Assembly (NCBI GenBank): GCA_036867785.1
Contig: CP145422.1
Coordinates: 1 to 64,000 of the forward strand
DNA: 64,000 nt
DNA from: Plasmodiophora brassicae
Lineage: Eukaryota
Direction: 5' to 3'
The notes below the pieces were generated by a model that did not search any database, was not told the DNA's origin, and was given only the letters and a program-made list of their open reading frames with translations. Shown piece by piece: positions 1 through 23,590 of the stretch. Within the stretch, counting starts at the first letter, position 1. The number at the start of each line of letters is the position of its first letter. A program made the translations under genes and the position numbers.

Positions 1-412
1 AAAACCCTAAAACCCTAAAACCCTAAAACCCTAAAACCCTAAAAACCCTAAAACCACCTAAAACCCTAAAACCCTAAAACCCAAAAACCCTAAAACCCTA
101 AAACCCTAAAACCCTAAAACCCTAAAACCCTAAAACCCTAAAACCCTAAAACCCTAAAACCCTAAAACCCTAAAACCCTAAAACCCTAAAACCCTAAAAC
201 CCTAAAACCCTAAAACCCTAAAACCCTAAAACCCTAAAACCCTAAAACCCTAAAACCCTAAAACCCTAAAACCCTAAAACCCTAAAAACCCTAAAACCCT
301 AAAACCCTAAGCCCCTAAACCCTAAGCCTAAAAAACCCTATAAAACCCTAAAACCCTAAAACCCTAAAACCCTAAGCCCCTAAAACCCTAAAAAACCCTA
401 AAAAAACCCTAA
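1..412. repeat. Telomeric repeat array (CCCTAAAA)n = (TTTTAGGG)n; left chromosome end
   Basis: About 50 tandem CCCTAAAA units from base 1, C-rich strand on +. Units are more degenerate at ~285-412 (CCCTAAG, CCCTATAAAA, longer A runs). Confidence 0.99.
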
Positions 413-3400
413 GCCCGGAACCTTACCCGGTTCAGGCAATCCGATGAGTACATAGTCACCGATCTGAAAGTTCGGTGCAGTTGCTCGTCGGTACGCGTCG
501 CTCCTCTTCCTGTGTACGGCTCGGATTTTCTTCGATTGCTGCACTGCTCCCTTGTGCATTTCATTCAGCGACGTCTGCAATTGCATGACTAGCTCCTGAA
601 TATGCTCCTTTGAGAGTGTAGCTTCCCCATACTTCTCATCCCCTGGCCTCTTGAACACTTGCTTCAGCGGGTTGTCTGGTTGACGTCCCATCATCACTGT
701 CACTGGCGCATTCCCGTTGGTACGCGCCTGCGACCTGTGATTGATCGTGTGTTCAATGTTGTGGTTCAACCATGGCCAATCGTATTTGTCCCACTGCAAT
801 TCAGACAGAAGTGCTCTGACTAGTTGCAAGTAGTTCCTGTTGATCACCTCAATTGATCCATTACTGTAATGCCCATAGGCAACAGTCGGGTGATGAGCAA
901 ATCCACATCGACGCGCCAGTTCCTTCACAACGTTTGCCAGAAAGCAAGACGCCATGTCTGACACCATCAACTCAAACGTTCCGAAGATAGCCCTCCATTC
1001 GAGCAGTGCCTCTACAGTGGTTTCCGCATTGGGTGTATGGTCAGGAGTAATCTTGACCATGCCAGACAGATCATCCCTGATTATCAGGTTCCATTGCAGA
1101 TCATGTCTTCCGCCCTTCTGAGCCGCCATCATGTATAGCCAATCCAAGTGAATCACCTGATTCGGCCTAACACCATGAACAGCTGTTCCCAATGGCCTGG
1201 GAATCCTAACCCCGCCCCTTGTCGGTAGACAGTTCAAACACGCGTTGCAGAACGTCCTCATGTCCTCATCGCAGTGTGCCCAATGGCAGAACTCCCCCAA
1301 CTTCCTCAACGAGGCCTTCAGTCCTAGATGCCCACTGTTTCCGCCCGCATGAGCAATAGCGCATAGCTGCAGCTTCAGCTCGTTGCATTCGTCTGGTATG
1401 ATCACCTGTCCCTTCCCTGTGACGAAGAGATCATCACCATTCTTCGGTCGTTTCGTTCCTCTGAGCCATTTCCTCTGAGCCTTACGGATTTCGTCCACGG
1501 TCGGCCATTGGAATTCCTTCCTTTGTAACGGCCGTACCCGATATCCGTCCTCAATTTGAAGCGTTATCCTCCTGATCGTGCGTACCTCTAGGTGCTGGTC
1601 ATCAGGCCCACCGTCCGGTGCACCCCACCGCGTCATAAGATCCGACCACACATTGTCCTCCCCCGCAATGTGTTTAATGACGTAGTTGACCCTCTGTATG
1701 TCCAGTGCCCATCGTTGCAGTTTCTGCGCCGTTGGCTTTGACACGTCCGTTGGTGAGAATATCCTCACGAGATTCCTATGATCGGTAAACAAACGAAACT
1801 GCTCGTTGGTTGTAACGAGATAGTCCAGTTTGTCAATCCCATCCTTGATCGCGAACCCTTCCTTCTCCACCGTGGACCAGTTCCGCTCTGGGCCCGCGAA
1901 CTTGTGTCCGACGAAACCCAGCGGTTCATGTCGCTGCCCATGCACTGGTTTACCCAAGTCCTCAGGCGGAATCTGTGTGACTACCGCCGCGCTGTTAACC
2001 TCATTTGCATCTGAGAATAGGCATTGGATCCGGTCCTTTCGCGGGTACGCTAGTTGGACCGTGTCCGCCACTGCCATCTTCAGTTTCTCGAATGCCAGCG
2101 CATGTTCGGGTGACCATCCATATTTGCACAATCGCACCCTCCTGGCAATGGCTTTCGTCCTGCCAGGTTGGTCCTTCATTGCATCCTCGTATATCCTCTG
2201 TAACAGGTGTACCTTCCTGTTGTACTCAGGGATGGACCTACTCATCCACTGAGTTGCCATAAGGAATTGTTGCAAGTCCCTTGCCGTCCTCGGCTGTGGT
2301 ATCGCCATTAAAGCCTCAATCCTAGCAGGATCGTGCCTTACCCCTTCTGGCGTGAATATCCTTCCACAGAACCGAACCTCTGTTGTGAAGAGCTCACACT
2401 TCTCCACGTTGAACTTGATGCTGTGCCGTTCGGCTAGCATCAGAGTCCGTTCCAACGTTCGGAACCAATCATCCTCCCTTTGGGCATGCCCCATTAGATC
2501 ATCGATCCATATGATTAGTTTGTGGAACATAAGTTCCCCGAACACCTCAAACATCCTCCCTTGATACTGAGGGGCGGAGTTCATTCCCCCCTGCATCGAC
2601 CTCGTTGGGTTATACACCCCCTTATCTGTCATGAAGGAGAAGATCTCCTGACACGCTTCATCCAGCGGCATCATCCAGAAGCCTTTGAACGCGTCTAGCT
2701 TAAACCAGAACCTCGAGCCTGCCAGGTTCCTGAGTATCGCCTCCTGATGTGGCATAGGCCACGCCACGGCGACACATTTGGCATTAACAGCTCTGAGATC
2801 AACACAGAACCGCTTTCCGCCCCCTGGCTTCGTCACCACCACCACCGGTGAAGCCCACTTCGCGTTGTAGTTTTCAACGACTAGGCCATACTTCTTCAAT
2901 TGGGCGACGAATTCCTCCATGAAAGCACTGTCCTCCATACTGTACTTTCTGGCTCGGCACCTGTAAGGTTCCGCATCCGGTTTCAGCTCCGTGACAAATG
3001 GTGTAACCCTGGCTGGACCATCAGGTCCAATGCTCATACGCCAAACGTCCCTATATCTTCTGACGAGTTTCCGAAGCGATTTCCCCATCGCTTGCGGTAG
3101 GCCATTCCTCAATGCGCGCTCGACCATCCCGTCCATCTCCCTTTCCAGGGAGTCTGTGGAATCGGTTCCGATCCTCACATCCTCTGTTTCCTCTTCCTCC
3201 CCTTCCCAGAGAGGTGGCATCTCGTTTGCCATATTGTGCACTTCATCCATGACGTCATTCCCCTTCTTCGGCGTGCTCTTAATGAGTACGTCCAGGGCCT
3301 TCTTTGGGTGGATACCCAAGTCGTCCAACAGCCTCTCCCCTGGGATTATTTCCTTTTCAGGAATGTCCCATACAAGGCATCGGCGCCGGCGAGTGATCAG

Positions 3401-4654
3401 TTCGCCTGCCGTCGTCGTCAGTCCCAGATCCAGTATCATCACATGGTAGGCTGTGTGCTTCGTTTCTCTGTCTACCAGACAGAACGTTTCCGGCTTCTGG
3501 AGGTTCTCCATTGTTAACAATGGGTCCCGCTCCATTAGCTCGCGCGCTATGGTCAATGGCATCAGAACGTCAACCGATGTCGCTCCACTGTCCAGAACCC
3601 CAACGTAGTCTTCCTCATGTCCGTTTACACGAACGACTACTTGGTCCCCTGTCCTCTGCGCCCCCTCCGACACTCTTCCTACCACTGGAAGCCATGGGTA
3701 CTCTGACAAGTCGTCATCTTTATCAGATTTGGCCTTACGGGGTCCATCCCTTCCCGTTGGCCCCTTGCGGCGATCCTTCAGCAGGTCTGCGACCTGCTTC
3801 TTGGTAGGCTTCTTCGGGCAACGAAACGCTGGATGTCCAACCTCGTCACAGTTGAAACATCGCAGGTCCTTCCGGTGTCGTTTCGTGTCCCGGCCTCCAT
3901 CGCCTCCTTCATCCGTCTGCGCCCCTCGCTTCTTCGGGGTGGGTTTGACCTTTCCCTTCCCCTTGCCATCCTCACGTCCCGGCTCCATGTACAACATCGT
4001 CTCCTCATACGATGCAGCCCGTTCCTTCAGCACCCGATAGAATTCCAAAGGGTCCTTCTGGAGATCGGTCTGGCGCTTCATGACGAGGGTCCGCATGAGC
4101 GCTTGTAAACCGGATGGGCGCACAGCACCCAGTAGGTACTTGACCAGGTTCTTCCGTCCCTCGCGGGACGTGAAGAGGTCCTGCCACCCGTTGCGCGCGA
4201 CCAATTCCTCGTACTGCTGCACGAGGTTCACGACCCTTGCCGCTGGTGTGGTGATGGTCAGCTTCATCGCCAGCTTCCGCATCTCCCGGTCGATGTTCGC
4301 GTCCGTCGAGCGATCCTGCTCCAGATGCCTCTTCATCCAGTCCATCAGGTCGCTCTCCGTCACCCCCTCGGCGTCCTTGCCGAGTTCCCACTTGCAGATC
4401 GCCCTGAGCAGACCGGGGTCGATCATACTCCTCACTGACCGCGGGATCTGGCCCTTGGCGTTCGGATCGTCCCGGAAGTGATTCCGATACGTCTTCAGCT
4501 CGGCCATGAACGTCGTGACGGCCTTGCGGTCCATGCTTTTCAAGGTCGGCGCCTTGTTCATCTGCAGGACGATCGTTGAGCCTTGCACGCTCTGTCCTTG
4601 TTGTCGATCATCGACGTCATCTTCCAGCAGCATCTCCTGCGCGGTGGCCACCAT
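398..4654 (-). CDS. Gag-Pol polyprotein (copy 1); last 4 codons and stop come from telomeric DNA
   Basis: CCHC knuckle CFNCDEVGHPAFRC; protease LDSGA; RT RFCVDLR/KLDAFKGFW/WIDD; RNase H FSDA..EKEG..TDHRNL; integrase HHCC (HAGGNSGH..CLNC) and D,D,E (HLDW, VSDMA, SIEVIN). First ATG after the LTR is at 4654; the open frame extends to 4876. Confidence 0.93.
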   Translation of the reverse strand: MVATAQEMLLEDDVDDRQQGQSVQGSTIVLQMNKAPTLKSMDRKAVTTFMAELKTYRNHFRDDPNAKGQIPRSVRSMIDPGLLRAICKWELGKDAEGVTESDLMDWMKRHLEQDRSTDANIDREMRKLAMKLTITTPAARVVNLVQQYEELVARNGWQDLFTSREGRKNLVKYLLGAVRPSGLQALMRTLVMKRQTDLQKDPLEFYRVLKERAASYEETMLYMEPGREDGKGKGKVKPTPKKRGAQTDEGGDGGRDTKRHRKDLRCFNCDEVGHPAFRCPKKPTKKQVADLLKDRRKGPTGRDGPRKAKSDKDDDLSEYPWLPVVGRVSEGAQRTGDQVVVRVNGHEEDYVGVLDSGATSVDVLMPLTIARELMERDPLLTMENLQKPETFCLVDRETKHTAYHVMILDLGLTTTAGELITRRRRCLVWDIPEKEIIPGERLLDDLGIHPKKALDVLIKSTPKKGNDVMDEVHNMANEMPPLWEGEEEETEDVRIGTDSTDSLEREMDGMVERALRNGLPQAMGKSLRKLVRRYRDVWRMSIGPDGPARVTPFVTELKPDAEPYRCRARKYSMEDSAFMEEFVAQLKKYGLVVENYNAKWASPVVVVTKPGGGKRFCVDLRAVNAKCVAVAWPMPHQEAILRNLAGSRFWFKLDAFKGFWMMPLDEACQEIFSFMTDKGVYNPTRSMQGGMNSAPQYQGRMFEVFGELMFHKLIIWIDDLMGHAQREDDWFRTLERTLMLAERHSIKFNVEKCELFTTEVRFCGRIFTPEGVRHDPARIEALMAIPQPRTARDLQQFLMATQWMSRSIPEYNRKVHLLQRIYEDAMKDQPGRTKAIARRVRLCKYGWSPEHALAFEKLKMAVADTVQLAYPRKDRIQCLFSDANEVNSAAVVTQIPPEDLGKPVHGQRHEPLGFVGHKFAGPERNWSTVEKEGFAIKDGIDKLDYLVTTNEQFRLFTDHRNLVRIFSPTDVSKPTAQKLQRWALDIQRVNYVIKHIAGEDNVWSDLMTRWGAPDGGPDDQHLEVRTIRRITLQIEDGYRVRPLQRKEFQWPTVDEIRKAQRKWLRGTKRPKNGDDLFVTGKGQVIIPDECNELKLQLCAIAHAGGNSGHLGLKASLRKLGEFCHWAHCDEDMRTFCNACLNCLPTRGGVRIPRPLGTAVHGVRPNQVIHLDWLYMMAAQKGGRHDLQWNLIIRDDLSGMVKITPDHTPNAETTVEALLEWRAIFGTFELMVSDMASCFLANVVKELARRCGFAHHPTVAYGHYSNGSIEVINRNYLQLVRALLSELQWDKYDWPWLNHNIEHTINHRSQARTNGNAPVTVMMGRQPDNPLKQVFKRPGDEKYGEATLSKEHIQELVMQLQTSLNEMHKGAVQQSKKIRAVHRKRSDAYRRATAPNFQIGDYVLIGLPEPGKVPGLGFF

Positions 4655-4950
4655 CGCGTCCTTCTTTGAAACCTTCCCCGAAAGGATGTTCAAGAGATCT
4701 CTGTGACGTCCCAACGGTGATGGTATATCAGCCGTGTAGTATAATCGTCTGTGTCCCCGACCTGCAGCTCCCACGGACGCCGTGCGGACTCCGTGCGCAC
4801 TCCGTGCATGTCCGTCATTCTTAGGGCGGCCTAGCCGGATCACAGCTATTCTTGTCTTATAGCTTGGAGCCGGCACACGCTTTATTATTGCAGCCCCCGT
4901 CTATCCGAATTCGATCCGACTCGAAGCAGATAGTGGCGACTGCAATCACA
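413..4950 (-). mobile_element. Ty3/gypsy LTR retrotransposon, distal copy, 3'-truncated by the telomere
   Basis: Domain order Gag-PR-RT-RH-IN. One putative 5' LTR. No PPT or 3' LTR; sequence joins telomere repeats at 412/413. Confidence 0.95.
4702..4950 (-). repeat. Putative 5' LTR (249 bp) of gypsy copy 1
   Basis: On the minus strand it starts TGTGA (4950) and ends TCACA (4702), just upstream of gag. Contains AATAAA, TATAAG and an 11-bp internal tandem (CACGGAGTGCG/CACGGAGTCCG). No partner LTR confirms the limits; 4844 is an alternative start. Confidence 0.55.
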
Positions 4951-5596
4951 GCACGATTGACCTCGGTTTCCGGATGATCCGACCACTGGGGGTCGCTCAG
5001 GACTGCCGCGCCTGCACCGATTGCAGCGAACGCTGACGCTCGGTGCCGGCTGAGGCGAGGATGACCAGCACGCTCGGGGCACGCGCGTATCGACCTCATC
5101 GGCTTGTATTGGACAGTTCTGGGTGAGGCGACGTGCCGGCGGCGACTTGTCGATAGTAGGCAGGCGTTCGCATATCGATCGCCGGCAACTGGCGCTGGCG
5201 GGCGCTGTCGTGCTGGACGACCTGCGGGACGGGCAGGTGACTCTCGACAGGCCGGCGGTGACTTCGGCGTGAAGGGCGGCGTTGGCGACCGGCAGCGTCG
5301 TCGGATCGTCGGTCGCGCGGGCGAAGCCCACCATGGAGTCGGCGCCTTCTTCACGTTGGGATGACTCCACGTCTATGGCGTATACCGCCCTCCAACGGGC
5401 ATGCGCATCGCGAACTCGTGTAGGAGGCGCCGGAGAACGGCGCACGCTCCATGGTGTACAGCGCATCCGCCCAGGCTACCTACCGCACGCCGCGCCGCCA
5501 CACGCCACCCGACCGCTTGCAAAATATCAACGGGGCTATTTTGGGAAGGGATCAAGCGTTTTTTGCGTAACCAAGACCAGGGATACACCTGTCATA

Positions 5597-8500
5597 TCAC
5601 CCTTTACCATAATCCATCTGTCGCTTCAGTTCCTCAGTGGCATTCACTTTGCCATGTTCATAGAGGCGAACGCGGTCCCCGTGAACGGTTCGAGTGTCCG
5701 TCTCATTGAACATATTCCTCACCTCGTAGGTGTAGTTCTCGTGGCTATCAGTTATTTGATATAGGCCCCGCCACTTCATAAAGAGCTTCTTGCCCGGAAC
5801 CTTACCCGGTTCAGGCAATCCGATGAGTACATAGTCACCGATCTGAAAGTTCGGTGCAGTTGCTCGTCGGTACGCGTCGCTCCTCTTCCTGTGTACGGCT
5901 CGGATTTTCTTCGATTGCTGCACTGCTCCCTTGTGCATTTCATTCAGCGACGTCTGCAATTGCATGACTAGCTCCTGAATATGCTCCTTTGAGAGTGTAG
6001 CTTCCCCATACTTCTCATCCCCTGGCCTCTTGAACACTTGCTTCAGCGGGTTGTCTGGTTGACGTCCCATCATCACTGTCACTGGCGCATTCCCGTTGGT
6101 ACGCGCCTGCGACCTGTGATTGATCGTGTGTTCAATGTTGTGGTTCAACCATGGCCAATCGTATTTGTCCCACTGCAATTCAGACAGAAGTGCTCTGACT
6201 AGTTGCAAGTAGTTCCTGTTGATCACCTCAATTGATCCATTACTGTAATGCCCATAGGCAACAGTCGGGTGATGAGCAAATCCACATCGACGCGCCAGTT
6301 CCTTCACAACGTTTGCCAGAAAGCAAGACGCCATGTCTGACACCATCAACTCAAACGTTCCGAAGATAGCCCTCCATTCGAGCAGTGCCTCTACAGTGGT
6401 TTCCGCATTGGGTGTATGGTCAGGAGTAATCTTGACCATGCCAGACAGATCATCCCTGATTATCAGGTTCCATTGCAGATCATGTCTTCCGCCCTTCTGA
6501 GCCGCCATCATGTATAGCCAATCCAAGTGAATCACCTGATTCGGCCTAACACCATGAACAGCTGTTCCCAATGGCCTGGGAATCCTAACCCCGCCCCTTG
6601 TCGGTAGACAGTTCAAACACGCGTTGCAGAACGTCCTCATGTCCTCATCGCAGTGTGCCCAATGGCAGAACTCCCCCAACTTCCTCAACGAGGCCTTCAG
6701 TCCTAGATGCCCACTGTTTCCGCCCGCATGAGCAATAGCGCATAGCTGCAGCTTCAGCTCGTTGCATTCGTCTGGTATGATCACCTGTCCCTTCCCTGTG
6801 ACGAAGAGATCATCACCATTCTTCGGTCGTTTCGTTCCTCTGAGCCATTTCCTCTGAGCCTTACGGATTTCGTCCACGGTCGGCCATTGGAATTCCTTCC
6901 TTTGTAACGGCCGTACCCGATATCCGTCCTCAATTTGAAGCGTTATCCTCCTGATCGTGCGTACCTCTAGGTGCTGGTCATCAGGCCCACCGTCCGGTGC
7001 ACCCCACCGCGTCATAAGATCCGACCACACATTGTCCTCCCCCGCAATGTGTTTAATGACGTAGTTGACCCTCTGTATGTCCAGTGCCCATCGTTGCAGT
7101 TTCTGCGCCGTTGGCTTTGACACGTCCGTTGGTGAGAATATCCTCACGAGATTCCTATGATCGGTAAACAAACGAAACTGCTCGTTGGTTGTAACGAGAT
7201 AGTCCAGTTTGTCAATCCCATCCTTGATCGCGAACCCTTCCTTCTCCACCGTGGACCAGTTCCGCTCTGGGCCCGCGAACTTGTGTCCGACGAAACCCAG
7301 CGGTTCATGTCGCTGCCCATGCACTGGTTTACCCAAGTCCTCAGGCGGAATCTGTGTGACTACCGCCGCGCTGTTAACCTCATTTGCATCTGAGAATAGG
7401 CATTGGATCCGGTCCTTTCGCGGGTACGCTAGTTGGACCGTGTCCGCCACTGCCATCTTCAGTTTCTCGAATGCCAGCGCATGTTCGGGTGACCATCCAT
7501 ATTTGCACAATCGCACCCTCCTGGCAATGGCTTTCGTCCTGCCAGGTTGGTCCTTCATTGCATCCTCGTATATCCTCTGTAACAGGTGTACCTTCCTGTT
7601 GTACTCAGGGATGGACCTACTCATCCACTGAGTTGCCATAAGGAATTGTTGCAAGTCCCTTGCCGTCCTCGGCTGTGGTATCGCCATTAAAGCCTCAATC
7701 CTAGCAGGATCGTGCCTTACCCCTTCTGGCGTGAATATCCTTCCACAGAACCGAACCTCTGTTGTGAAGAGCTCACACTTCTCCACGTTGAACTTGATGC
7801 TGTGCCGTTCGGCTAGCATCAGAGTCCGTTCCAACGTTCGGAACCAATCATCCTCCCTTTGGGCATGCCCCATTAGATCATCGATCCATATGATTAGTTT
7901 GTGGAACATAAGTTCCCCGAACACCTCAAACATCCTCCCTTGATACTGAGGGGCGGAGTTCATTCCCCCCTGCATCGACCTCGTTGGGTTATACACCCCC
8001 TTATCTGTCATGAAGGAGAAGATCTCCTGACACGCTTCATCCAGCGGCATCATCCAGAAGCCTTTGAACGCGTCTAGCTTAAACCAGAACCTCGAGCCTG
8101 CCAGGTTCCTGAGTATCGCCTCCTGATGTGGCATAGGCCACGCCACGGCGACACATTTGGCATTAACAGCTCTGAGATCAACACAGAACCGCTTTCCGCC
8201 CCCTGGCTTCGTCACCACCACCACCGGTGAAGCCCACTTCGCGTTGTAGTTTTCAACGACTAGGCCATACTTCTTCAATTGGGCGACGAATTCCTCCATG
8301 AAAGCACTGTCCTCCATACTGTACTTTCTGGCTCGGCACCTGTAAGGTTCCGCATCCGGTTTCAGCTCCGTGACAAATGGTGTAACCCTGGCTGGACCAT
8401 CAGGTCCAATGCTCATACGCCAAACGTCCCTATATCTTCTGACGAGTTTCCGAAGCGATTTCCCCATCGCTTGCGGTAGGCCATTCCTCAATGCGCGCTC

Positions 8501-10033
8501 GACCATCCCGTCCATCTCCCTTTCCAGGGAGTCTGTGGAATCGGTTCCGATCCTCACATCCTCTGTTTCCTCTTCCTCCCCTTCCCAGAGAGGTGGCATC
8601 TCGTTTGCCATATTGTGCACTTCATCCATGACGTCATTCCCCTTCTTCGGCGTGCTCTTAATGAGTACGTCCAGGGCCTTCTTTGGGTGGATACCCAAGT
8701 CGTCCAACAGCCTCTCCCCTGGGATTATTTCCTTTTCAGGAATGTCCCATACAAGGCATCGGCGCCGGCGAGTGATCAGTTCGCCTGCCGTCGTCGTCAG
8801 TCCCAGATCCAGTATCATCACATGGTAGGCTGTGTGCTTCGTTTCTCTGTCTACCAGACAGAACGTTTCCGGCTTCTGGAGGTTCTCCATTGTTAACAAT
8901 GGGTCCCGCTCCATTAGCTCGCGCGCTATGGTCAATGGCATCAGAACGTCAACCGATGTCGCTCCACTGTCCAGAACCCCAACGTAGTCTTCCTCATGTC
9001 CGTTTACACGAACGACTACTTGGTCCCCTGTCCTCTGCGCCCCCTCCGACACTCTTCCTACCACTGGAAGCCATGGGTACTCTGACAAGTCGTCATCTTT
9101 ATCAGATTTGGCCTTACGGGGTCCATCCCTTCCCGTTGGCCCCTTGCGGCGATCCTTCAGCAGGTCTGCGACCTGCTTCTTGGTAGGCTTCTTCGGGCAA
9201 CGAAACGCTGGATGTCCAACCTCGTCACAGTTGAAACATCGCAGGTCCTTCCGGTGTCGTTTCGTGTCCCGGCCTCCATCGCCTCCTTCATCCGTCTGCG
9301 CCCCTCGCTTCTTCGGGGTGGGTTTGACCTTTCCCTTCCCCTTGCCATCCTCACGTCCCGGCTCCATGTACAACATCGTCTCCTCATACGATGCAGCCCG
9401 TTCCTTCAGCACCCGATAGAATTCCAAAGGGTCCTTCTGGAGATCGGTCTGGCGCTTCATGACGAGGGTCCGCATGAGCGCTTGTAAACCGGATGGGCGC
9501 ACAGCACCCAGTAGGTACTTGACCAGGTTCTTCCGTCCCTCGCGGGACGTGAAGAGGTCCTGCCACCCGTTGCGCGCGACCAATTCCTCGTACTGCTGCA
9601 CGAGGTTCACGACCCTTGCCGCTGGTGTGGTGATGGTCAGCTTCATCGCCAGCTTCCGCATCTCCCGGTCGATGTTCGCGTCCGTCGAGCGATCCTGCTC
9701 CAGATGCCTCTTCATCCAGTCCATCAGGTCGCTCTCCGTCACCCCCTCGGCGTCCTTGCCGAGTTCCCACTTGCAGATCGCCCTGAGCAGACCGGGGTCG
9801 ATCATACTCCTCACTGACCGCGGGATCTGGCCCTTGGCGTTCGGATCGTCCCGGAAGTGATTCCGATACGTCTTCAGCTCGGCCATGAACGTCGTGACGG
9901 CCTTGCGGTCCATGCTTTTCAAGGTCGGCGCCTTGTTCATCTGCAGGACGATCGTTGAGCCTTGCACGCTCTGTCCTTGTTGTCGATCATCGACGTCATC
10001 TTCCAGCAGCATCTCCTGCGCGGTGGCCACCAT
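5597..10033 (-). CDS. Gag-Pol polyprotein (copy 2); terminal YGKG* comes from the duplication junction
   Basis: Uninterrupted ORF (frame open 5597-10255) with the same motifs as copy 1 plus the GPY/F-like motif. Confidence 0.93.
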   Translation of the reverse strand: MVATAQEMLLEDDVDDRQQGQSVQGSTIVLQMNKAPTLKSMDRKAVTTFMAELKTYRNHFRDDPNAKGQIPRSVRSMIDPGLLRAICKWELGKDAEGVTESDLMDWMKRHLEQDRSTDANIDREMRKLAMKLTITTPAARVVNLVQQYEELVARNGWQDLFTSREGRKNLVKYLLGAVRPSGLQALMRTLVMKRQTDLQKDPLEFYRVLKERAASYEETMLYMEPGREDGKGKGKVKPTPKKRGAQTDEGGDGGRDTKRHRKDLRCFNCDEVGHPAFRCPKKPTKKQVADLLKDRRKGPTGRDGPRKAKSDKDDDLSEYPWLPVVGRVSEGAQRTGDQVVVRVNGHEEDYVGVLDSGATSVDVLMPLTIARELMERDPLLTMENLQKPETFCLVDRETKHTAYHVMILDLGLTTTAGELITRRRRCLVWDIPEKEIIPGERLLDDLGIHPKKALDVLIKSTPKKGNDVMDEVHNMANEMPPLWEGEEEETEDVRIGTDSTDSLEREMDGMVERALRNGLPQAMGKSLRKLVRRYRDVWRMSIGPDGPARVTPFVTELKPDAEPYRCRARKYSMEDSAFMEEFVAQLKKYGLVVENYNAKWASPVVVVTKPGGGKRFCVDLRAVNAKCVAVAWPMPHQEAILRNLAGSRFWFKLDAFKGFWMMPLDEACQEIFSFMTDKGVYNPTRSMQGGMNSAPQYQGRMFEVFGELMFHKLIIWIDDLMGHAQREDDWFRTLERTLMLAERHSIKFNVEKCELFTTEVRFCGRIFTPEGVRHDPARIEALMAIPQPRTARDLQQFLMATQWMSRSIPEYNRKVHLLQRIYEDAMKDQPGRTKAIARRVRLCKYGWSPEHALAFEKLKMAVADTVQLAYPRKDRIQCLFSDANEVNSAAVVTQIPPEDLGKPVHGQRHEPLGFVGHKFAGPERNWSTVEKEGFAIKDGIDKLDYLVTTNEQFRLFTDHRNLVRIFSPTDVSKPTAQKLQRWALDIQRVNYVIKHIAGEDNVWSDLMTRWGAPDGGPDDQHLEVRTIRRITLQIEDGYRVRPLQRKEFQWPTVDEIRKAQRKWLRGTKRPKNGDDLFVTGKGQVIIPDECNELKLQLCAIAHAGGNSGHLGLKASLRKLGEFCHWAHCDEDMRTFCNACLNCLPTRGGVRIPRPLGTAVHGVRPNQVIHLDWLYMMAAQKGGRHDLQWNLIIRDDLSGMVKITPDHTPNAETTVEALLEWRAIFGTFELMVSDMASCFLANVVKELARRCGFAHHPTVAYGHYSNGSIEVINRNYLQLVRALLSELQWDKYDWPWLNHNIEHTINHRSQARTNGNAPVTVMMGRQPDNPLKQVFKRPGDEKYGEATLSKEHIQELVMQLQTSLNEMHKGAVQQSKKIRAVHRKRSDAYRRATAPNFQIGDYVLIGLPEPGKVPGKKLFMKWRGLYQITDSHENYTYEVRNMFNETDTRTVHGDRVRLYEHGKVNATEELKRQMDYGKG

Positions 10034-10329
10034 CGCGTCCTTCTTTGAAACCTTCCCCGAAAGGATGTTCAAGAGATCTCTGTGACGTCCCAACGGTGAT
10101 GGTATATCAGCCGTGTAGTATAATCGTCTGTGTCCCCGACCTGCAGCTCCCACGGACGCCGTGCGGACTCCGTGCGCACTCCGTGCATGTCCGTCATTCT
10201 TAGGGCGGCCTAGCCGGATCACAGCTATTCTTGTCTTATAGCTTGGAGCCGGCACACGCTTTATTATTGCAGCCCCCGTCTATCCGAATTCGATCCGACT
10301 CGAAGCAGATAGTGGCGACTGCAATCACA
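5614..10329 (-). mobile_element. Ty3/gypsy LTR retrotransposon, proximal copy, truncated just after the GPY/F region
   Basis: Same as copy 1 plus 178 bp more of integrase C-terminus (KWRGLYQI...VHGDRVRLY). No chromodomain, PPT or 3' LTR. Confidence 0.95.
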
Positions 10330-10992
10330 GCACGATTGACCTCGGTTTCCGGATGATCCGACCACTGGGGGTCGCTCAGGACTGCCGCGCCTGCACCGAT
10401 TGCAGCGAACGCTGACGCTCGGTGCCGGCTGAGGCGAGGATGACCAGCACGCTCGGGGCACGCGCGTATCGACCTCATCGGCTTGTATTGGACAGTTCTG
10501 GGTGAGGCGACGTGCCGGCGGCGACTTGTCGATAGTAGGCAGGCGTTCGCATATCGATCGCCGGCAACTGGCGCTGGCGGGCGCTGTCGTGCTGGACGAC
10601 CTGCGGGACGGGCAGGTGACTCTCGACAGGCCGGCGGTGACTTCGGCGTGAAGGGCGGCGTTGGCGACCGGCAGCGTCGTCGGATCGTCGGTCGCGCGGG
10701 CGAAGCCCACCATGGAGTCGGCGCCTTCTTCACGTTGGGATGACTCCACGTCTATGGCGTATACCGCCCTCCAACGGGCATGCGCATCGCGAACTCGTGT
10801 AGGAGGCGCCGGAGAACGGCGCACGCTCCATGGTGTACAGCGCATCCGCCCAGGCTACCTACCGCACGCCGCGCCGCCACACGCCACCCGACCGCTTGCA
10901 AAATATCAACGGGGCTATTTTGGGAAGGGATCAAGCGTTTTTTGCGTAACCAAGACCAGGGATACACCTGTCATATCACCCTTTACCATAAT
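5792..10992. repeat. Tandem segmental duplication, proximal (template) copy
   Basis: Same match as above. This copy is continuous with unique sequence on both sides (pol 5614-5791; kinase exon beyond 10992). Confidence 0.97.
10081..10329 (-). repeat. Putative 5' LTR of gypsy copy 2
   Basis: Duplicate of 4702-4950; TGTGA...TCACA termini. Confidence 0.55.
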
Positions 10993-11644
10993 GATATAGC
11001 CGAAATCCTTGTGGCAAAACGTTGCCTCAACCTGCACGATGCTTGCATGCTGCCCGATCGTCTCGGCTGCCTTGACCTCACGCTCATAGTCTTCCTGAGC
11101 CGCCATGCGATAACGCTTTGCGACCCGCACGATGCCATCCCCGGTTCCGTACGCATAGAACAACGAAGACTTCGCTTGGCCAGCGACTGGGAGCACGCCG
11201 TCCAAAATGAACCCGTACGTTTCGCCAATGTAGTGACGGTCCGTCGTGATGAATTGAGACCGCGCCTTGGTTAGGATTCGCTCGGCCTCGTTCTGATTCG
11301 CATGGCGCAGCTCGCCATATGCGGCAACGTCCTTGTCAATTAAGAAATTAAGGTCTCTGGTTGTGACCCGGACGTTGAGCCGTCGCAGGCGATCGCGAAT
11401 GCTCTCGTCTATACACTGGATTTAGCAAAACGGGCGGAAATGGCGTGTAGCCGGTCTACGTACCGACCGGGCGAACGGCCTGGAGGGCGGCCAGGGCAGC
11501 GTCGCGGGCACGCTCGGCGGCGGCGGCGTCGCGCTCCATGTGAGGCAGGCGCGGGTCATCGGGGTTGGCGTCCCGCACGGCCCTGTTCGCGGCCACGGCG
11601 TCGGCGTCGCTCTGCTTGAAAAGCTCCTCCAAAGACTGCGACAT
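10915..11644 (-). pseudogene. Protein kinase gene fragment (N-terminal extension plus N-lobe only)
   Basis: Exon MSQSLEELFK...RPV, a probable short intron, then the open frame IDESIRDRL...FILDGVL...VRVAKRY...DYEREVKA...HASIVQV...GYIIM (VAxK lysine, helix-C Glu, HxxIV). After a probable intron ending at 10915 the frame reads PR*; no HRD or DFG follows. Confidence 0.7.
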
Positions 11645-12252
11645 GATGGCCGCCCACGTCAAACTGGAGTGAAAGTCCGTGTGGACAGACCTGGCCAGGA
11701 AGGTTGTGAGCGTCGCTCCGAGGCTACCAGTCAGGCGCTCCGAGGCCACTAGTCAGGCACTTCAGGTCGCCATCATGTCCGAGGGCAGTGCCAAGCGCAT
11801 GTCGATATCGGGCACGCCAACGCCGGACATGCAGGTTGTTGGTCGATGACGATGATGGCCCGACGGCCACCACAGATGGGGCTCTGCCAGATGTTGTTGG
11901 CGCGAGAACCATGGCACGATTGTCGACAATAGAGTGTACTTACTCAACCGAGAAGCCCGGGCCGCCCGCATGCGAAAATGGGCATGTCGGCGGAGGCTTG
12001 GTACGCCAGCATTATCGTCTGTTGGTGGCGCGCGGCGCCGGCGGCGGCCCACCTTCGCACCGCATTGGGGCGTCGCCCCCCGTGACGACGGCACGTGGAC
12101 GGAAGGATGATGCGTCGCCCGATCGATCCGCCATCGTGTGCCGCACGAATATGCTGGTGCCGAGGGGCGGGAGGGTGCTTGTGGCGTCGAAAGAGAGGAT
12201 GAACGACGAGTGAGGATTTAACTTCATCGGAAAGGAGATGTACATTCGGAGG

Positions 12253-12640
12253 TCAGGGGTAAGTACTGTTGCAGGGTTGCTGGCCTATCTTGCGGCGACC
12301 AGCACAGCGAAGAACCACGTCGCAGCTTGGTGTCCTGGTTCTGACGAACTTACAGCAGGTTCTGCTGCTCGATGCGAAGATACTGATGCACCACGACTGT
12401 GGAAACAGCTTACCCCACCGAATTAATGAGGACGTTGTCGCCAATGTCGCGTTGCTGGAGAGGTACTGCGTGTACGCCTTCATCGTGACGCCCGTGTCTT
12501 GCTTGAATGCGATAGGCCAGCCTTCGCGACCGTGCCAAACCATAATCAGATAGGAAAGGGCGTTGTACAGCGGGTGTGTCTCCTTAACGAAGCGCAGTCC
12601 GCCACCACGTACATGTACATAGCACCAAGTTACGTCCCTT
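12253..12640 (-). mobile_element. Helitron Rep-domain remnant (frameshifted, with stop)
   Basis: LRFVKETHPLYNALSYLIMVWHGREGW...VTMKAYTQYL...LIRWGKLF, then in a shifted frame VVHQYLRIEQQNLL*VRQNQDTKLRR. This matches the Helitron RepHel pattern HPxYxxLxYPLLFxxGExGW...GRLFQQYxVDxYxxIExxRLxxIRxNQxxLR. Confidence 0.8.
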
Positions 12641-15600
12641 GGCAAGCGCGCCCATCGACATTGTCTGCATCGAGAACGACAACATCGAACTTAGGGACCG
12701 TGGGCTCGTTGTCGCGCCGAACATGTTCCCTGCTGGGGCGCTGGCAATGACAACCACGCGCAGATTTGGCGACGTGCACATGCGGCCCTTCCAACCGATT
12801 TCGGACCGGGCACCAAGGTCGGATAAGCCCTGACAGCGGGGTGCATTTATGCAAATTGTGGAGCTGATTGGCCGGTGCTCACTATCGCTCTTGAACTATG
12901 CACTCCGCAGCGATCCCAGTCGCTGGACATTCGTGGTGCCCAACGGCAACGGACGCTCCGTCGTCGATCTCGCCTTGACCCGCGGTCTCGACTCTGCGCG
13001 CCTCAGCGTGGTTGACGCACCGATCAGCACGGCGCATCGCATGCTGGTTGTCGCGAGCGATCACGTCGTGCTGGAACGCGTTGACCCGAAGCGCTACTCC
13101 TGGGCGCGCAGGATGTTCGCTGACCCGGACGATCGCCCAGCCCTGTCGGTCCTGCTGGCCCCGGCCTACAATTACCTACGAGCCCTGTGGATGGATGCCA
13201 CCCTGGATTTCGACGACATCGCTGACCACCCTACCGCAGCCCTGCAGGACGCCGTCGACAGTCTGTACCGCCACACCACTGACGTCCTTCGCGCCGTTCT
13301 CGAGGACATCGCCTGCTGGCCCAGCTCCCGGTCCAAGCGAGGTCGCACCGCAACGATGCGTCCCGACTGGCAGGCGCTGCAGCGCTGCGACCTGCGCTTC
13401 TACCTCAGTTCGATGCGACGCGTCTTTGCAGCCACGTCGCAGCTGCAGCCCAGCCAGCGCCCGTCCATCGAGGAATTCGCCGACCATTGGAAAGCGGTCT
13501 TCGAGAAGCCGGGCGTGGACGACGGCCCGCGCCTGCGTTGCCCGCGTCTCTCCACCGACCTGGACGACGAGGAGCGCCATGCGTTCGGCCCCGCTGTCGT
13601 CACCGCCATCATCAAGCGGCATGAGTGGATGAAGGGGGTCGGCCCGGACAACATACCGATGGACCTCCTGAAGCGTGACCCGGATGCCGCCGGCCCCTGG
13701 ATATCCTGCATGTTCACCTGTTTGTACACTGTGCAGCTCGTGCCGTCTGATTGGCGGTCGGCGCTCGTTGTGCCCGTGCACAAACGGAACACCGAACCCG
13801 CTGACCCGTTGAACTGGCGAGGCATTGCGCTGCAGTCCCACCTCCGGAAGGCATACGAGACGTGTCTGATCACGCACATGCACCTGAAGGGGTGGCTGCA
13901 GATGCACTTCCTGCAGTTTGGATTTCGGCGAGGCATCGGTGTCCCTGAAGCCGTATGGGTGGCTGACGAGCTGACCACCCACTGGGCGTCACGACGCAAG
14001 CCACTGACCGAAGTCCTCCTCGACATGAGGAAGGCGTACGATAGCGCCCGCCGCATCCACGTCTACAACAAGCTGCAGAGGCGCGGTGTGCCGGCCCATG
14101 TCATCGCCGTTCTGCAAGCCCTGTTCGACGGCTGCCACTTCATTATCGCCCTGGACGGGCAGCTCTCCGAGCGGATCGCCGCGCTCGTCGGCCTATTCCA
14201 GGGCGCCATTGGCTCCCCTGATCACTTGTTCAACGTTCTGATCGACGACCTGCCGTACCAGATTGTGTCGCGGTTCGGCGACGAGGGCCCGATGTTCGAC
14301 CACATGCCGGTGCCCTGCCAGTTCTACGCCGACGACACCCTGCTGCACGCCTTCACCGACCAGATGGCCCAGGCCATGATGGACCTCTGCCAGGAGTACG
14401 CGCAGCGGCACGAACTCGAGTGGAACGCGACGAAATGGATCGTCTCCAGGCCGAGGACGTCGACCGCCGCGCAGCCGGCCGCCCTGACCATCGGCGGCAA
14501 CCGCGTCGTCGAGGAGCACGAGCTCGACAAGCCGGTGTGCTTCCTGGGCGCCGTCATGAAGGATGGTCGCCTCGATCATCGAGCCCAGCTCGCCTCGCGG
14601 ACAGCCAGAGCCGAGAAGGCCATGATCGGGATTATGCACTCGGGCGTGTTCAGCACGAAGCACCTGTCGATCGTCCGGAAGACGCGCGTCGTCGGCGCCT
14701 GGATCCGTTCGCGCGCCGAGTACGGACTCGCCATCAGCAACAGCCACGTCGGCCTGCTGAAGAAGCTCGACCAGCTGCAGAAGTCGGCCGCCGCCCTGTT
14801 CTTCGGTGGGTACCGCCGCCGCATCGGCTCGTCCCTGATGCTCCGGTACGCGGGACCCGTGCCCGCCGCTGCCCGCCAAGCCAAGCTGCGCGCCCGGTTC
14901 GCGTTCAAGCAGATCACGTGGTCGGAGCAGATCAAGGATGGCGACCGCGTCCCGTACCTGGTCCGCGTCACGCGTTGGGCGCTCAACAACCCGCGCAGCC
15001 GCTTCAACATGATGCTGAAGGGCTGCAAGGTCTACGCGGACGCGACGGCCATCTACAAGAACGGCGAACAGGCACGCGCGATACGTAACAGCGATGAACT
15101 CGCTGACGTCGAGGCCGGCCGACCGACACGAAAGCGCCCACGCCTGCCCGATCGGCAAGACGCCCTGCTGCAGGCGCTCGAGCTGCACACATGGACCGCT
15201 GCCAACGCGACCTGCAAGCTGATGCGCCTGCAGATGCAGCCGTACAATCTGCCCTTCCCGGCCGCGTACCACTCAGGAGACGACGCGTACGCGGTGGCCT
15301 CCTGGATCACGAACCGGATCCCGGGCTCGAGTGCTCAATGCCGAGGTTGCAACGACCGCAACCTATCCCGGTACCACATGTCGGAGCGGTGCACTGACTC
15401 GACCCGGTTGCTCAGGCCCGTCAGCGATTGGCGCATCCGGGCGCTACACTTCAACAGGGCCGACACCGGGATCGCCATCGACTACGTGGCCATTCAGCTG
15501 AAGTACGATTACGCTCGGCTGACGGCGCCGCCCGCCAGCGAAGCCGACCGCCTGCGCCCTCGTCGGATGCCGGATCCGCGCGACCCGACGTTTCGGCTGA

Positions 15601-16014
15601 GCGATCGCCAGCGACGTTGGCTGGCCATCCTGGGAACGTTCATCCACGCCGTTGCCGCCCGATGCATCCGCGGCGAGCCGCTCCCGATCTCCGCCCAGGG
15701 CGACGCAGCGCTTCCTGGGCTGGACGCGACGCTCTGGAACGAGATCAGCGACGATCGATGAGGAGAACGAGAACGCGCGCGTCGCCGTTGAAGCCGCTGA
15801 ACGTGTCCTCGACGACCCTGCAATGGCCGGGATCCTGGGCGATGCGAAGGCAAGACCACCCGGCCGCGCTCGTGACGATCCCGTGCTGGCCGATCGCGAA
15901 CATGACGGCGCGAACCCTCCCGGGGACAGCATTGCGAACGGCAACACTGAAGACGACACCATCATGCCCGAAGATGATACCGCCGATCCTGGCGGTGACA
16001 CGGATTATGATTGA
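12639..16014 (+). mobile_element. Non-LTR retrotransposon (LINE-like, APE-RT-CCHC), degenerate at the 5' end
   Basis: APE remnants upstream of and within the long ORF, a full RT, a C-terminal Cys/His knuckle and a frameshifted acidic tail. Ends are undefined; no poly(A) or TSD seen. Confidence 0.88.
12849..15761 (+). CDS. LINE ORF2: C-terminal part of AP endonuclease, reverse transcriptase and zinc knuckle
   Basis: APE motifs WTF...SVVDL and SDHVVL. RT motifs KGVGPDNIP, VHKR...NWRGIAL, QFGFRRG, LLDMRKAYDS, GLFQGAIGSP.LF, FYADDT, FLG. C-terminal CRGC...YHMSERC. Confidence 0.92.
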   Translation: MQIVELIGRCSLSLLNYALRSDPSRWTFVVPNGNGRSVVDLALTRGLDSARLSVVDAPISTAHRMLVVASDHVVLERVDPKRYSWARRMFADPDDRPALSVLLAPAYNYLRALWMDATLDFDDIADHPTAALQDAVDSLYRHTTDVLRAVLEDIACWPSSRSKRGRTATMRPDWQALQRCDLRFYLSSMRRVFAATSQLQPSQRPSIEEFADHWKAVFEKPGVDDGPRLRCPRLSTDLDDEERHAFGPAVVTAIIKRHEWMKGVGPDNIPMDLLKRDPDAAGPWISCMFTCLYTVQLVPSDWRSALVVPVHKRNTEPADPLNWRGIALQSHLRKAYETCLITHMHLKGWLQMHFLQFGFRRGIGVPEAVWVADELTTHWASRRKPLTEVLLDMRKAYDSARRIHVYNKLQRRGVPAHVIAVLQALFDGCHFIIALDGQLSERIAALVGLFQGAIGSPDHLFNVLIDDLPYQIVSRFGDEGPMFDHMPVPCQFYADDTLLHAFTDQMAQAMMDLCQEYAQRHELEWNATKWIVSRPRTSTAAQPAALTIGGNRVVEEHELDKPVCFLGAVMKDGRLDHRAQLASRTARAEKAMIGIMHSGVFSTKHLSIVRKTRVVGAWIRSRAEYGLAISNSHVGLLKKLDQLQKSAAALFFGGYRRRIGSSLMLRYAGPVPAAARQAKLRARFAFKQITWSEQIKDGDRVPYLVRVTRWALNNPRSRFNMMLKGCKVYADATAIYKNGEQARAIRNSDELADVEAGRPTRKRPRLPDRQDALLQALELHTWTAANATCKLMRLQMQPYNLPFPAAYHSGDDAYAVASWITNRIPGSSAQCRGCNDRNLSRYHMSERCTDSTRLLRPVSDWRIRALHFNRADTGIAIDYVAIQLKYDYARLTAPPASEADRLRPRRMPDPRDPTFRLSDRQRRWLAILGTFIHAVAARCIRGEPLPISAQGDAALPGLDATLWNEISDDR

Positions 16015-16450
16015 CTCGACGAACAGACTCTGGGGAAGCACAGACAGGACGAATAATCATCATTCGTCATGTCTGTGCTTCCCCAAAGTCTGTTCGTCGA
16101 CTCAATCACGACGCGTCAGCTGTATCCTCACTAATACATATAGAAGCCCTTAAGCTCCTACGTTTCGCCACCACACACCACACTAAACGCGTCTGATAAC
16201 GTTGGGTAAGCGGGTTTAACTCTTCCGCAGCGTCGAGCAATCCACAGAATAGACCAGAACCTGAACCCTGCAAAGGTCCCGGCAGCGAAGCCTGAGAAGC
16301 CACCGGACACATCGAGATCAATGCGCCTAGCAGCAGTCGTCCACGATGGTCACCGTCCGCGACGTTTCCATGGGTGTCCGCCGGCCATCAGTGCACACGA
16401 CGCACGCGAGAAGCTCTTTGGCGGTGGTGGCTGCGCGAACGTCGACGCGG

Positions 16451-21051: not shown

Positions 21052-21180
21052 CGGCGAGGTCATGACCGAGCCCGGCCGTGGCGTTCCTTGCATTGAGCGA
21101 AAAGTCGTGGACCGGTGCTCCACGTCCTGGCCAGGCTTGCAAGCCCGGTTGGAGGACCACCTCCTGGAGATTGTCGTCGT
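20886..21180. repeat. Diverged fold-back inverted repeat (arms ~120 bp, spacer ~55 bp)
   Basis: 20886-21005 (...CTGGCCAGGATGTGGAGCACCGGTCCACGA...GGCCGGGCTCGGTCATGA) is the reverse complement of 21060-21180 (TCATGACCGAGCCCGGCCG...TCGTGGACCGGTGCTCCACGTCCTGGCCAG...). The ORF track shows MTEPGRGVP.IER.VVDRCSTSWP on both strands. Confidence 0.9.
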
Positions 21181-23089: not shown

Positions 23090-23590
23090 CGCTCATCAAT
23101 CTGGAGTCGCCGCTTATCAATCTGGAGCCGACGCGCATCGAGCTCCCGCCGCAGTTCCAGACCGACACGGCTGTCCCGAGGACAGCAGCGGCGATGACTG
23201 CAATGAATAGGTATGATGAGAACGCTGTTCATCGGCCGGTTGTTCACGGAAATTGTTTACTCACGGCAAATGTTATCCATGCCGATGTGGTACCATCATC
23301 TCCCTACATGGCGCCAGAGATCTATAGAACTGGCGGTGGGCGCAATATGCGCGTAGCGGCGCCCACCGCCAGTTCTATAGATCTCTGGCGCCATGATACC
23401 ACATCGGCATGGATAACATTCGCCGCGGGAAACAATGCGGCCGATGAACAGCGTTCTCATCGTATTCATTGCAGTCATCGCCGCTGCTGTCCTCGGGACA
23501 GCCGTGTGGGTCTGGAACTGCTACGCGGATCGCCAACTGCGGCGGGAGCTCGATGCGCGTCGCCTCCAGATTGATGAGCGGCGACTCAAG
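23090..23590. repeat. Long inverted repeat / hairpin (arms ~230-250 bp, 15-nt loop)
   Basis: Perfect 37-bp core: 23307-23343 CATGGCGCCAGAGATCTATAGAACTGGCGGTGGGCGC versus 23359-23395. Pairing continues with indels out to about 23100 and 23588. Confidence 0.95.

Follow-up and report, generated by a model that had tools for sequence, protein, structure and literature searches.

The window analysed here is the whole stretch of 64,000 nucleotides from Plasmodiophora brassicae, described as an unculturable obligate biotroph (PMC11191646), which corresponds to positions 1 to 64,000 of contig CP145422.1 (assembly GCA_036867785.1). All features described below are read on the minus strand. Positions 1–412 are filled by (CCCTAAAA)n, a terminal telomere tract, (TTTTAGGG)n on the feature strand, which runs out of the window and was delimited with TRF and by unit parsing. 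TRF reported a period of 8 with 49.5 copies and the consensus AAAACCCT, and the canonical unit TTTTAGGG accounts for 35 of the 48 parsed units. This agrees with the repeat given for the species in published reports (PMC6823432, PMC11191646). A green-alga origin, to which TTTTAGGG and ~60% GC had pointed (Chlamydomonas), is rejected in view of this agreement and of the 99.7% identity between the pol protein and a P. brassicae protein. The proximal ~110 nt of the tract are rich in variants (GCTTAGGG four times, T7AGGG and T6AGGG). A search of the window with a pattern of two units, allowing up to two mismatches, placed all 42 matches within 5–393, with no telomere repeats between the two copies described below or further inward.

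Comparison of the window with itself showed that the sequence at 413–5613, next to the telomere (the distal copy), is identical to that at 5792–10992 (the proximal copy) over 5201 bp, with 0 mismatches at an offset of 5379. This confirms the repeat and the period reported in the initial annotation, and the exact alignment of the two copies that had been proposed there has thereby been carried out. At this offset, it is the single unbroken identical run among those of at least 20 nt. The copies follow one another head to tail at the extreme chromosome end and amount to 1.97 units of 5379 bp, so what had been described as an array is a tandem duplication of two copies and not a long array. The 178 bp which lie between them (5614–5791) are found in the proximal copy only, where they extend the pol ORF and encode an integrase C-terminal SH3/GPY-F-like module (KWRGLYQ...VHGDRVRLY), and the distal copy falls short of the end point of the proximal one by 178 bp. 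Its content is, in order, the hexamer ATTATG, a 5' non-coding region, gag-pol up to the integrase residues ...PEPGKVPG, and the telomere.

Judging from its sequence, the unit is composed of the 5' non-coding region and the gag-pol gene of a chromovirus-like Ty3/gypsy element. In the proximal copy, the gag-pol ORF (5597–10033, ATG at 10033–10031) is open up to the junction between the copies and terminates in five junction-encoded codons and a stop. In the distal copy, the ORF (398–4654 from the ATG at 4654–4652, 398–4900 in its full open extent) continues into the telomere, which encodes its last codons (LGFF*). A CCHC zinc knuckle (CFNCDEVGHPAFRC, 9191–9241 in the proximal ORF) can be read in P0001, for which the Pfam zf-CCHC model scores below its cut-off (E = 0.0085, 16.6 bits against 20.8). 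It is followed by the protease motif DSG (8957–8974, read in the sequence), the reverse transcriptase (RVT_1, residues 690–846 of P0001; 7742–8212), RNase H (RT_RNaseH, residues 929–1070; 7070–7495), the integrase zinc domain (Integrase_H2C2, residues 1174–1225; 6605–6760) and the integrase core (6227–6523). The Pfam search of P0001 did not report rve, and the D,D35E core was recognised by reading D...D-35-E in the sequence. The order of protease, reverse transcriptase, RNase H and integrase (HHCC and D,D35E) is that of gypsy elements. The 5' end of the element is proximal and its truncated 3' end distal, which means that the ORF reads toward the chromosome end.

The proximal gag-pol product is nearly identical to the P. 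brassicae protein P0002 (1108 of 1111 residues, 99.7%), which extends 80 element-coded codons beyond the junction and includes a chromodomain-like stretch. The Pfam match to Chromo in P0002 is weak (E = 6.3e-4, 20 bits, under the cut-off of 25.1), and PF00385 is precomputed in nine of the ten closest relatives from outside P. brassicae (P0003–P0012); relatives of the element with a C-terminal chromodomain share 46–59% identity with it. The chromodomain is missing from both copies owing to their truncation, the 3' end of pol having been sought across the window. P0002 itself ends in telomere-encoded residues, so that the same element lies at a telomere in a second record, in the same orientation and capped at a point 80 codons further 3'. 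In the protein database, the element forms one cluster at 90% identity with 8 member sequences. A query with the C-terminal part of P0002 against proteins shorter than 658 aa retrieved 5 proteins, all with at most 52% identity, and thus no further close copies.

Upstream of gag lies the 5' non-coding region of the element (10034–10986, with its twin at 4655–5607), which comprises the LTR and leader and possibly some non-element DNA. These 953 bp separate the gag ATG from the hexamer ATTATG at the end of the kinase exon described below. Its first bases are GTAAAG, possibly a splice-donor-like site or else, counted from 10988, the TG... start of an LTR. Self-BLAST of the unit found neither a second LTR nor an internal direct repeat, the longest self-match being 24 nt. 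Candidate terminal inverted repeats are matches of 5–6 nt, which is at chance level, and primer binding site (PBS) candidates picked by eye in the 5' region are unlike tRNA 3' ends, the window containing no tRNA genes for comparison. At the nucleotide level, 10385–10731 resembles dispersed repeats at 24.5–29.1 kb, which are not colinear with the unit, and a tblastx comparison of 10280–12830 with the remaining window was swamped by GC-rich low-complexity matches. One 5' LTR is presumed to be present in the unit, and the full set of LTR-element features (two LTRs, PBS, PPT and target-site duplication) is not found in it. The earlier description of one LTR plus ~660 bp of non-element flank stands as regards the absence of a 3' LTR, while its division of the flank does not, as the window gives no basis for dividing the 953 bp. 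It was also right that the unit is not a provirus, since it is without the final section of pol and has neither a PPT nor a 3' LTR.

The proximal copy borders on a truncated protein-kinase gene, of which exon 1 (11464–11644, beginning MSQSLEELFKQ), intron 1 (11409–11463, GTACGT...TATAG) and exon 2 (10987–11408, N-lobe, ending ...FGYIIM) remain. Direct Pfam and PDB sequence searches with the fragment gave no match, and its identity as a kinase is assigned through relatives only. No full-length orthologue was found among 566 candidates, of which two (97% and 92% identity) were retained at E <= 1e-10. Both kinase paralogues, P0122 and P0150, carry on after ...YIIM with PFFPRSASDLL..., a continuation that the window does not contain. 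Nowhere in the window are the kinase C-lobe, the 3' end of pol or the 3' LTR found. The piece of kinase gene that the initial annotation had placed in the unit is reduced to 6 nt of recognisable coding sequence, the last six of the unit (ATTATG, 10987–10992), and the remainder of the fragment (10993–11644) lies outside it.

The same hexamer marks the junction between the copies (5608–5613), where the integrase C-terminal region meets kinase gene sequence. On the kinase side, ATTATG is seen as DNA, and encodes the I-M at the end of the exon. On the pol side, it is deduced from the protein P0002, as the identity with P0002 persists for two residues (D and Y) past the repeat boundary, encoded by the AT TAT of the hexamer. 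From this we infer a microhomology of 5–6 nt at the junction. On the minus strand of positions 1–25000, ATTATG has three occurrences, namely the junction itself at 5608, the site used at 10987, and one more at 12541, for an expectation of ~2 in 19.4 kb, which indicates that the nearest upstream copy was the one used. Since the junction lies within the integrase C-terminal region and a kinase gene, it did not arise from integrase-mediated transposition, as had been claimed earlier, or from LTR-LTR exchange. An array of the LTR-internal-LTR-internal type, produced by unequal LTR exchange or from multimeric cDNA, was considered and rejected, both because pol continues past the junction in P0002 and the relatives and because the unit begins in a kinase exon.

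A perfect identity over 5.2 kb at the end of a contig is a place where assemblers err, and the count of two copies is taken from the assembled window sequence. Manual patching was needed at some chromosome ends of published P. brassicae assemblies, according to one genome report (PMC11191646). There could then be one true copy, with the junction derived from chimeric reads or from mixed genotypes in a field isolate, or more than two copies collapsed by the assembler. We consider such an artefact of assembly or copy number improbable. The join is clean and direct, with neither inversion nor filler, and falls at a rare hexamer which is the nearest one upstream; supporting reads would be required at two joins, telomere to pol and pol to kinase; and in P0002, an independent protein record, the element again lies immediately below a telomere and points the same way.

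At the other end of the distal copy, the telomere is joined to pol at GGGC. The join reads ...CCGGGC/TTAGGG, or ...GGTTCCGGGC/TTAGGG in its longer context, with a G-rich seed, and the first repeats are irregular. The repeats are thus seated on unique sequence at a short G-rich overlap and the DNA distal to it is gone, which are the marks of chromosome healing. The telomere might also have been captured from an existing one by recombination instead of being added de novo. The duplication as a whole has the marks of a terminal amplicon, i.e. direct, near-identical terminal copies (5201 bp, 100%) under a telomere, with a junction of short microhomology.

The reading we favour, with a probability of roughly 50%, is that erosion or a break in pol was followed by resection, microhomology-primed break-induced replication (BIR), either in cis or with the sister chromatid as template, run-off of synthesis, and healing by telomerase. 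We infer the following order of events. A chromovirus-like Ty3/gypsy element, its 3' end facing the telomere, would have been located beside a subtelomeric kinase gene or within it. The chromosome end would have been lost or broken within the region coding for the integrase C-terminus, and the 5' strand resected by ~180 nt. Through its terminal ATTATG, the exposed 3' end could then have paired with the nearest such hexamer upstream, which lies at a distance of 5.4 kb and makes up the final two codons of kinase exon 2; the partner would have been the same arm or a sister chromatid that was equally broken. From there, the segment would have been copied again through BIR, until synthesis reached the template's resected 5' end and ran off it, and the new ...CCGGGC end would have been lengthened by telomerase. 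Run-off at this place would account for the new copy being 178 bp shorter. The proposal of the initial annotation that a broken end in pol invaded 5.4 kb upstream and was healed by telomerase fits these observations, with a microhomology of 5–6 nt and the nearest upstream hexamer at the site. Under this microhomology-mediated BIR (mmBIR) model, synthesis would be conservative and the process would depend on BIR factors (Pol32/Pif1).

Some features sit less well with a single episode. That the upstream site lies exactly at the end of the kinase homology (10987) would be a coincidence under this model. It is softened only in the case of an intron donor at 10986 (GTAAAG), because the DNA here, at ~60% GC, contains few AT-rich hexamers. 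In addition, with an intact sister chromatid BIR should have copied to its natural end, and the model consequently needs the template itself to be broken and resected. The same geometry could also result by chance from two separate events.

Such a history, which we regard as possible but rather unlikely, would consist of an interstitial microhomology-mediated tandem duplication of the 5379-bp segment, either through a template switch in replication or through microhomology-mediated end joining (MMEJ) between sister chromatids, and a later, unrelated terminal deletion in the distal copy which was healed. The same junction microhomology and the same healed end account for the data under this history, both types of event are common, and no special template geometry is necessary. 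Moreover, P0002 shows that in another record healing took place elsewhere in an element of this family, which implies that terminal breaks and their healing recur in this sequence. The second break would however need to lie no more than 178 bp from where the duplicated segment ends, for which the chance is about 3% (178/5379) if breaks in the distal unit are random and uniform, and below 3% over a longer lost arm. The absence of any difference between the copies also demands that both events be very recent.

The start of the unit within 6 nt of the onset of non-kinase and possibly LTR sequence brings to mind a retroelement circle, the content of which would be exactly LTR-gag-pol(partial). A one-LTR circle of 5379 bp, for example an autointegration product in which the 5' end of the LTR is joined to a site in pol, could have undergone recombination with the copy in the chromosome, or have acted as rolling-circle template for a broken end, which would yield identical head-to-tail copies, before healing of the end. 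This seems highly improbable to us: that the host kinase exon has the hexamer too would become a 1-in-4096 coincidence and not the cause of the join, and the 178-bp shortfall would be left unexplained. The LTR start at 10986–10988 is moreover putative, with a 5-bp terminal inverted match at chance level, and no PBS is recognisable by eye, the window offering no tRNA genes to compare.

The initial annotation had also raised the prospect of a dedicated system in which an LTR element elongates subtelomeres. The chromovirus family would then be drawn to chromosome ends and amplified in that location, as Y' is in yeast, so as to buffer or lengthen them. The telomere-capped element of P0002 in a second record, in the same orientation and 80 codons further 3', points in this direction, as do the ORF reading toward the chromosome end and the known targeting of heterochromatin by chromodomain integrases. 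Against this, there are only 1.97 copies, an ordinary telomerase-type tract caps the end, no telomere repeats separate the copies, and the unit includes host kinase bases while being without the parts required for transposition. The protein database holds a single cluster at 90% identity with 8 member sequences, and P0002 may represent the same chromosome end in another isolate. The orientation is furthermore the opposite of that known for target-primed additions, and thus wrong for end-targeted retrotransposition. We therefore hold this system to be extremely unlikely. A related reading, very unlikely in our view, is that the chromovirus family resides preferentially at P. brassicae ends with its 3' side outward and is repeatedly eroded, copied again by recombination and capped again, P0002 being at another end; it would serve as a buffer separating genes from the telomere, one that can be sacrificed and expanded, and would be the counterpart of yeast Y' among LTR elements.

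The duplicated end reveals no new telomere-maintenance system, and has the look of a scar that the repair of a break left once, not of a new route of end maintenance. If real, it is a clean natural case of a rhizarian plant parasite in which a chromosome end was rebuilt within a single episode by microhomology-primed re-copying and then telomerase healing, and the 178-bp shortfall may preserve the length of the end resection. This P. brassicae chromosome end is also shown to be unstable: the kinase gene and the retrotransposon are both truncated, and in another record a telomere caps a near-identical copy of the element at a position that differs. This bears on the origin of structural variation in a clonal crop pathogen.

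Comparison with known systems suggests that the duplication and healing at this end would be a further instance of mechanism types which have already been described. Among telomere-specific retroelements, HeT-A/TART, SART/TRAS, MoTeR and Penelope-like elements have a non-LTR or Penelope-type reverse transcriptase, are target-primed, and lie with their 3' end proximal and 5' end distal, whereas the element described here is of the LTR type, has an integrase, and has its 5' end proximal. To our knowledge, the earlier statement that telomere-associated retroelements are never LTR elements overlooks Ty5, a telomere-targeted LTR element, and the targeting of heterochromatin by chromoviruses. The element shares its subtelomeric location with Ty5, and with chromoviruses the succession of gag-CCHC, protease, reverse transcriptase, RNase H and integrase in gypsy order. 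Unlike chromoviruses, the copies in the window are without chromodomain, PPT and 3' LTR, and would have been multiplied by host DNA repair and not by transposition. The Y' elements of yeast, which carry a helicase ORF and an ARS and lie between X and the telomere at many ends, resemble this locus in that repeated, ORF-bearing units adjoin the telomere with the ORF directed toward the end. They differ from it in that the unit contains retroelement domains only and no helicase ORF, and in that two copies are found at one known end.

Healing by de novo telomere addition occurs in yeast, Plasmodium, ciliates and human terminal deletions. As in those cases, the repeats abut unique coding sequence at a G-rich overlap, the distal DNA is lost, and no subtelomeric repeat intervenes; here, unlike elsewhere, the re-copying of 5.2 kb would have come first, and the healed end is in the duplicated segment. 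In Chlamydomonas, new telomeres without subtelomeres have been described, which are preceded by tandem duplications with microhomologies of 2–4 bp (PMC10620057). There is a further likeness to the terminal head-to-tail amplicons reported in yeast (SUL1, Y'), attributed to mmBIR in cis, with a similar amplification at human 18p (PMC13515017). The pseudo-rolling-circle mmBIR presented in that report shares with the present end the near-identical head-to-tail terminal copies, conservative copying toward the end (which would apply here as well), and a short-microhomology join several kb upstream on the same arm (PMC13515017). In the amplicons described there, it is a short telomere that invades, internal telomere-like sequence provides the microhomology, and the copies are set apart by expanded telomeric tracts (PMC13515017), whereas here the invading end would lie inside a retrotransposon gene, the microhomology is ATTATG, and no such tract is present. 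The P. brassicae end differs from these amplicons (PMC13515017) also in having gained approximately one extra copy, and in needing a fresh addition of telomere.

A comparison of the window with itself showed that positions 413–5613 and 5792–10992 are identical over 5201 bp (0 mismatches, in a single unbroken run at an offset of 5379 bp), which confirms the exact repeat reported by the initial annotation. The head-to-tail structure totals 1.97 units of 5379 bp, and 178 bp (5614–5791) are found in the proximal copy only, without counterpart in the distal, telomere-side copy. It is unlikely that the arrangement reflects an assembly error or an incorrect copy number. Telomeric sequence occupies 1–412 and joins the distal copy as ...GGTTCCGGGC/TTAGGG-T7AGGG-T6AGGG.... 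TRF returned a period of 8, 49.5 copies and the consensus AAAACCCT; the canonical TTTTAGGG, the published P. brassicae telomere repeat according to PMC6823432 and PMC11191646, accounts for 35 of the 48 parsed units. The repeat and a GC content of about 60% would also suit Chlamydomonas, an origin set aside since the element's polyprotein and the adjacent kinase fragment match P. brassicae proteins. Non-canonical units are concentrated in the ~110 nt beside the telomere junction, the distal tract being almost entirely canonical; the variants at 300–412 are GCTTAGGG (four occurrences, one of them right at the junction), T7AGGG, T6AGGG and TTTTATAGGG. All 42 two-unit pattern matches lie within 5–393, so that there are no telomere repeats between the copies or elsewhere in the 64 kb.

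The gag-pol ORF of the proximal copy (10279..5597, minus strand, 1560 codons), in which gag likely starts at 10033, encodes a CCHC knuckle, a DSG protease motif, RT, RNase H, an integrase zinc domain and a D,D35E core, in gypsy order. Its translation (P0001) shares 1108 of 1111 residues with P0002, an NCBI protein of Plasmodiophora brassicae from a sister copy outside the window; the closest relatives from other organisms are 46–59% identical, most with a C-terminal chromodomain (128 database relatives, E <= 1e-3). P0002 extends 80 element-coded residues past the window's junction, across a chromodomain-like stretch (Chromo profile E 6.3e-4, under Pfam's cut-off). This region of pol is absent throughout the 64-kb window and no internal direct repeat able to serve as a second LTR occurs within the unit, so the 3' truncation affects both element copies: pol breaks off after ...RQMD(Y) in the proximal copy and, 59 codons before that point, at ...PEPGKVPG in the distal copy. 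The presumed 5' LTR and leader must lie within the 953 bp upstream of gag (10034–10986). Positions 10385–10731 resemble dispersed, non-coding repeats at 24.5–29.1 kb (66–83% identity, not colinear). The latter (24582–25310, 26516–26899 and 28182–29124) are diverged, show relatedness in permuted order both among themselves and to 10385–10731, and could be relics of ancient LTRs or members of a local repeat family.

The ORF crossing 10992 had 28 matches (E <= 1e-3) among 1.84 billion representative proteins, the best being P0122, a P. brassicae kinase paralogue of 359 aa (95% identity); seven of the eight scanned matches contain a Pkinase domain, and the fragment is 97% and 92% identical to two named P. 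brassicae kinases. With tblastn, 27 of the 28 relatives align to the window, every alignment falling inside 11644–10921, and no kinase C-lobe was found anywhere in it. Close-paralogue homology ends exactly at 10987 (...FGYIIM), a single weak alignment extending to 10921, and after this point P0122 and a second paralogue, P0150, both read PFFPRSASDLL.... On the minus strand, exon 1 (11644–11464) is followed by a 55-nt intron and by exon 2 (11408–10987), which places the repeat boundary 10992/10993 6 nt inside the final kinase codons, ATT ATG; the GTAAAG... that comes next may represent either an intron donor or the beginning of inserted DNA. The piece of kinase gene assigned earlier to the unit is real, but merely 6 nt of it lie inside. 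The truncated kinase (10987–11644, minus) is one of a small group of P. brassicae kinases (359–362 aa, 92–97% identity), the others being encoded on other large contigs, and protein searches did not find the window's variant in full-length form. Just upstream of it, a 975-codon open frame (12834–15761, plus) with an RVT_1 match (E 6.9e-17) and no other Pfam match represents a second, different retroelement. The window also holds four palindromic self-matches (16008–16108, 20877–21188, 23101–23590 and 31101–31164), which are inverted repeats centred on themselves (64–540 nt, 77–91% identity), and a 734-codon frame with PPR repeats (33977–36181, minus; PF01535, E 6.7e-23). Long in-frame, GAAGAAG/GACGAC-rich tandem repeats (49633–51501; periods 15, 33, 48 and 144 nt) within open frames of ~1000 codons precede a block of 70–72% GC at 52–62 kb, which includes a REJ-domain frame (56084–60241, E 1.2e-19).

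Read on the minus strand, the sequence is ...CAGATGG ATTATG GTAAAGG... where the two copies meet and ...GGCTATATC ATTATG GTAAAGG... at the proximal boundary. Identity between P0002 and the window persists for two residues (D, Y) beyond the repeat boundary; AT TAT codes for these two, and P0002 then has a D, whose codon begins with G. Judging from the protein, intact pol almost certainly reads GATTATG at the breakpoint, which would set the join within a microhomology of 5–6 nt. The window's DNA is GC-rich (about 60%), and within positions 1–25000 ATTATG has just three minus-strand occurrences, one at the join (5608), one at the site used (10987) and one at 12541, the upstream site used being the nearest one. 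LTR–LTR exchange, multimeric cDNA and integrase action do not fit because the join connects the interior of pol to a host exon, in agreement with the earlier view that integrase-mediated transposition does not explain the unit. A retroelement circle acting as template or recombination partner would account for the unit starting where non-kinase DNA starts, but it makes the shared hexamer a coincidence and is improbable.

The best fit, to which we give a probability of about one half, is repair of the chromosome end. The chromosome would first lose its end, or break, within pol; 5' resection would follow, and the 3' end in ATTATG would anneal to the closest upstream ATTATG, on the same arm or on an equally broken sister chromatid, the template's 5' strand being resected in either case. 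Break-induced replication would then proceed toward the chromosome end and run off before reaching the old end, and telomerase would extend the G-rich end. A shortfall of 178 bp (184 nt including the hexamer) is what short-range resection would leave. Against end repair, kinase homology ends just where the upstream annealing site lies, which is unremarkable only if an intron donor lies there, since AT-rich hexamers are rare and clustered in such places. It is conceivable but doubtful that a tandem duplication arose first and an unrelated terminal deletion came later, as the second break demands a coincidence of ~3%. The junction microhomology, its pol side deduced from protein, and the use of the nearest ATTATG support and sharpen the end-repair interpretation already put forward.

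P0002 terminates in ...KAEGVQ-FRVFLGF-stop, where FRVFLGF-stop is the translation of TnAGGG-T7AGGG-T4AG. By this coding evidence, the element copy behind P0002 is itself directly telomere-capped, in the same orientation and 80 codons 3' of the window's join. The telomere starts alike in both, with xTTAGGG-T7AGGG (compare 395–430 of the window). The P0002 copy may represent either the same chromosome end in another isolate, in which case a history of erosion and re-healing would follow, or a different end. No further close copies of the element were found among the shorter proteins searched (5 matches, all <= 52% identity). A dedicated end-elongation system based on LTR elements, as the initial annotation had suggested, is unsupported and very improbable.

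The duplication adds one more case of processes already known, of interest mainly as a tidy natural example of them and as evidence for the instability of this P. brassicae chromosome end. The end-repair reading has precedents: PMC13515017 describes terminal head-to-tail amplicons arising in yeast via mmBIR in cis and an amplification at human 18p similar to them, and, in PMC10620057, tandem duplications with 2–4-bp microhomologies are reported to precede new telomeres in Chlamydomonas telomerase mutants.
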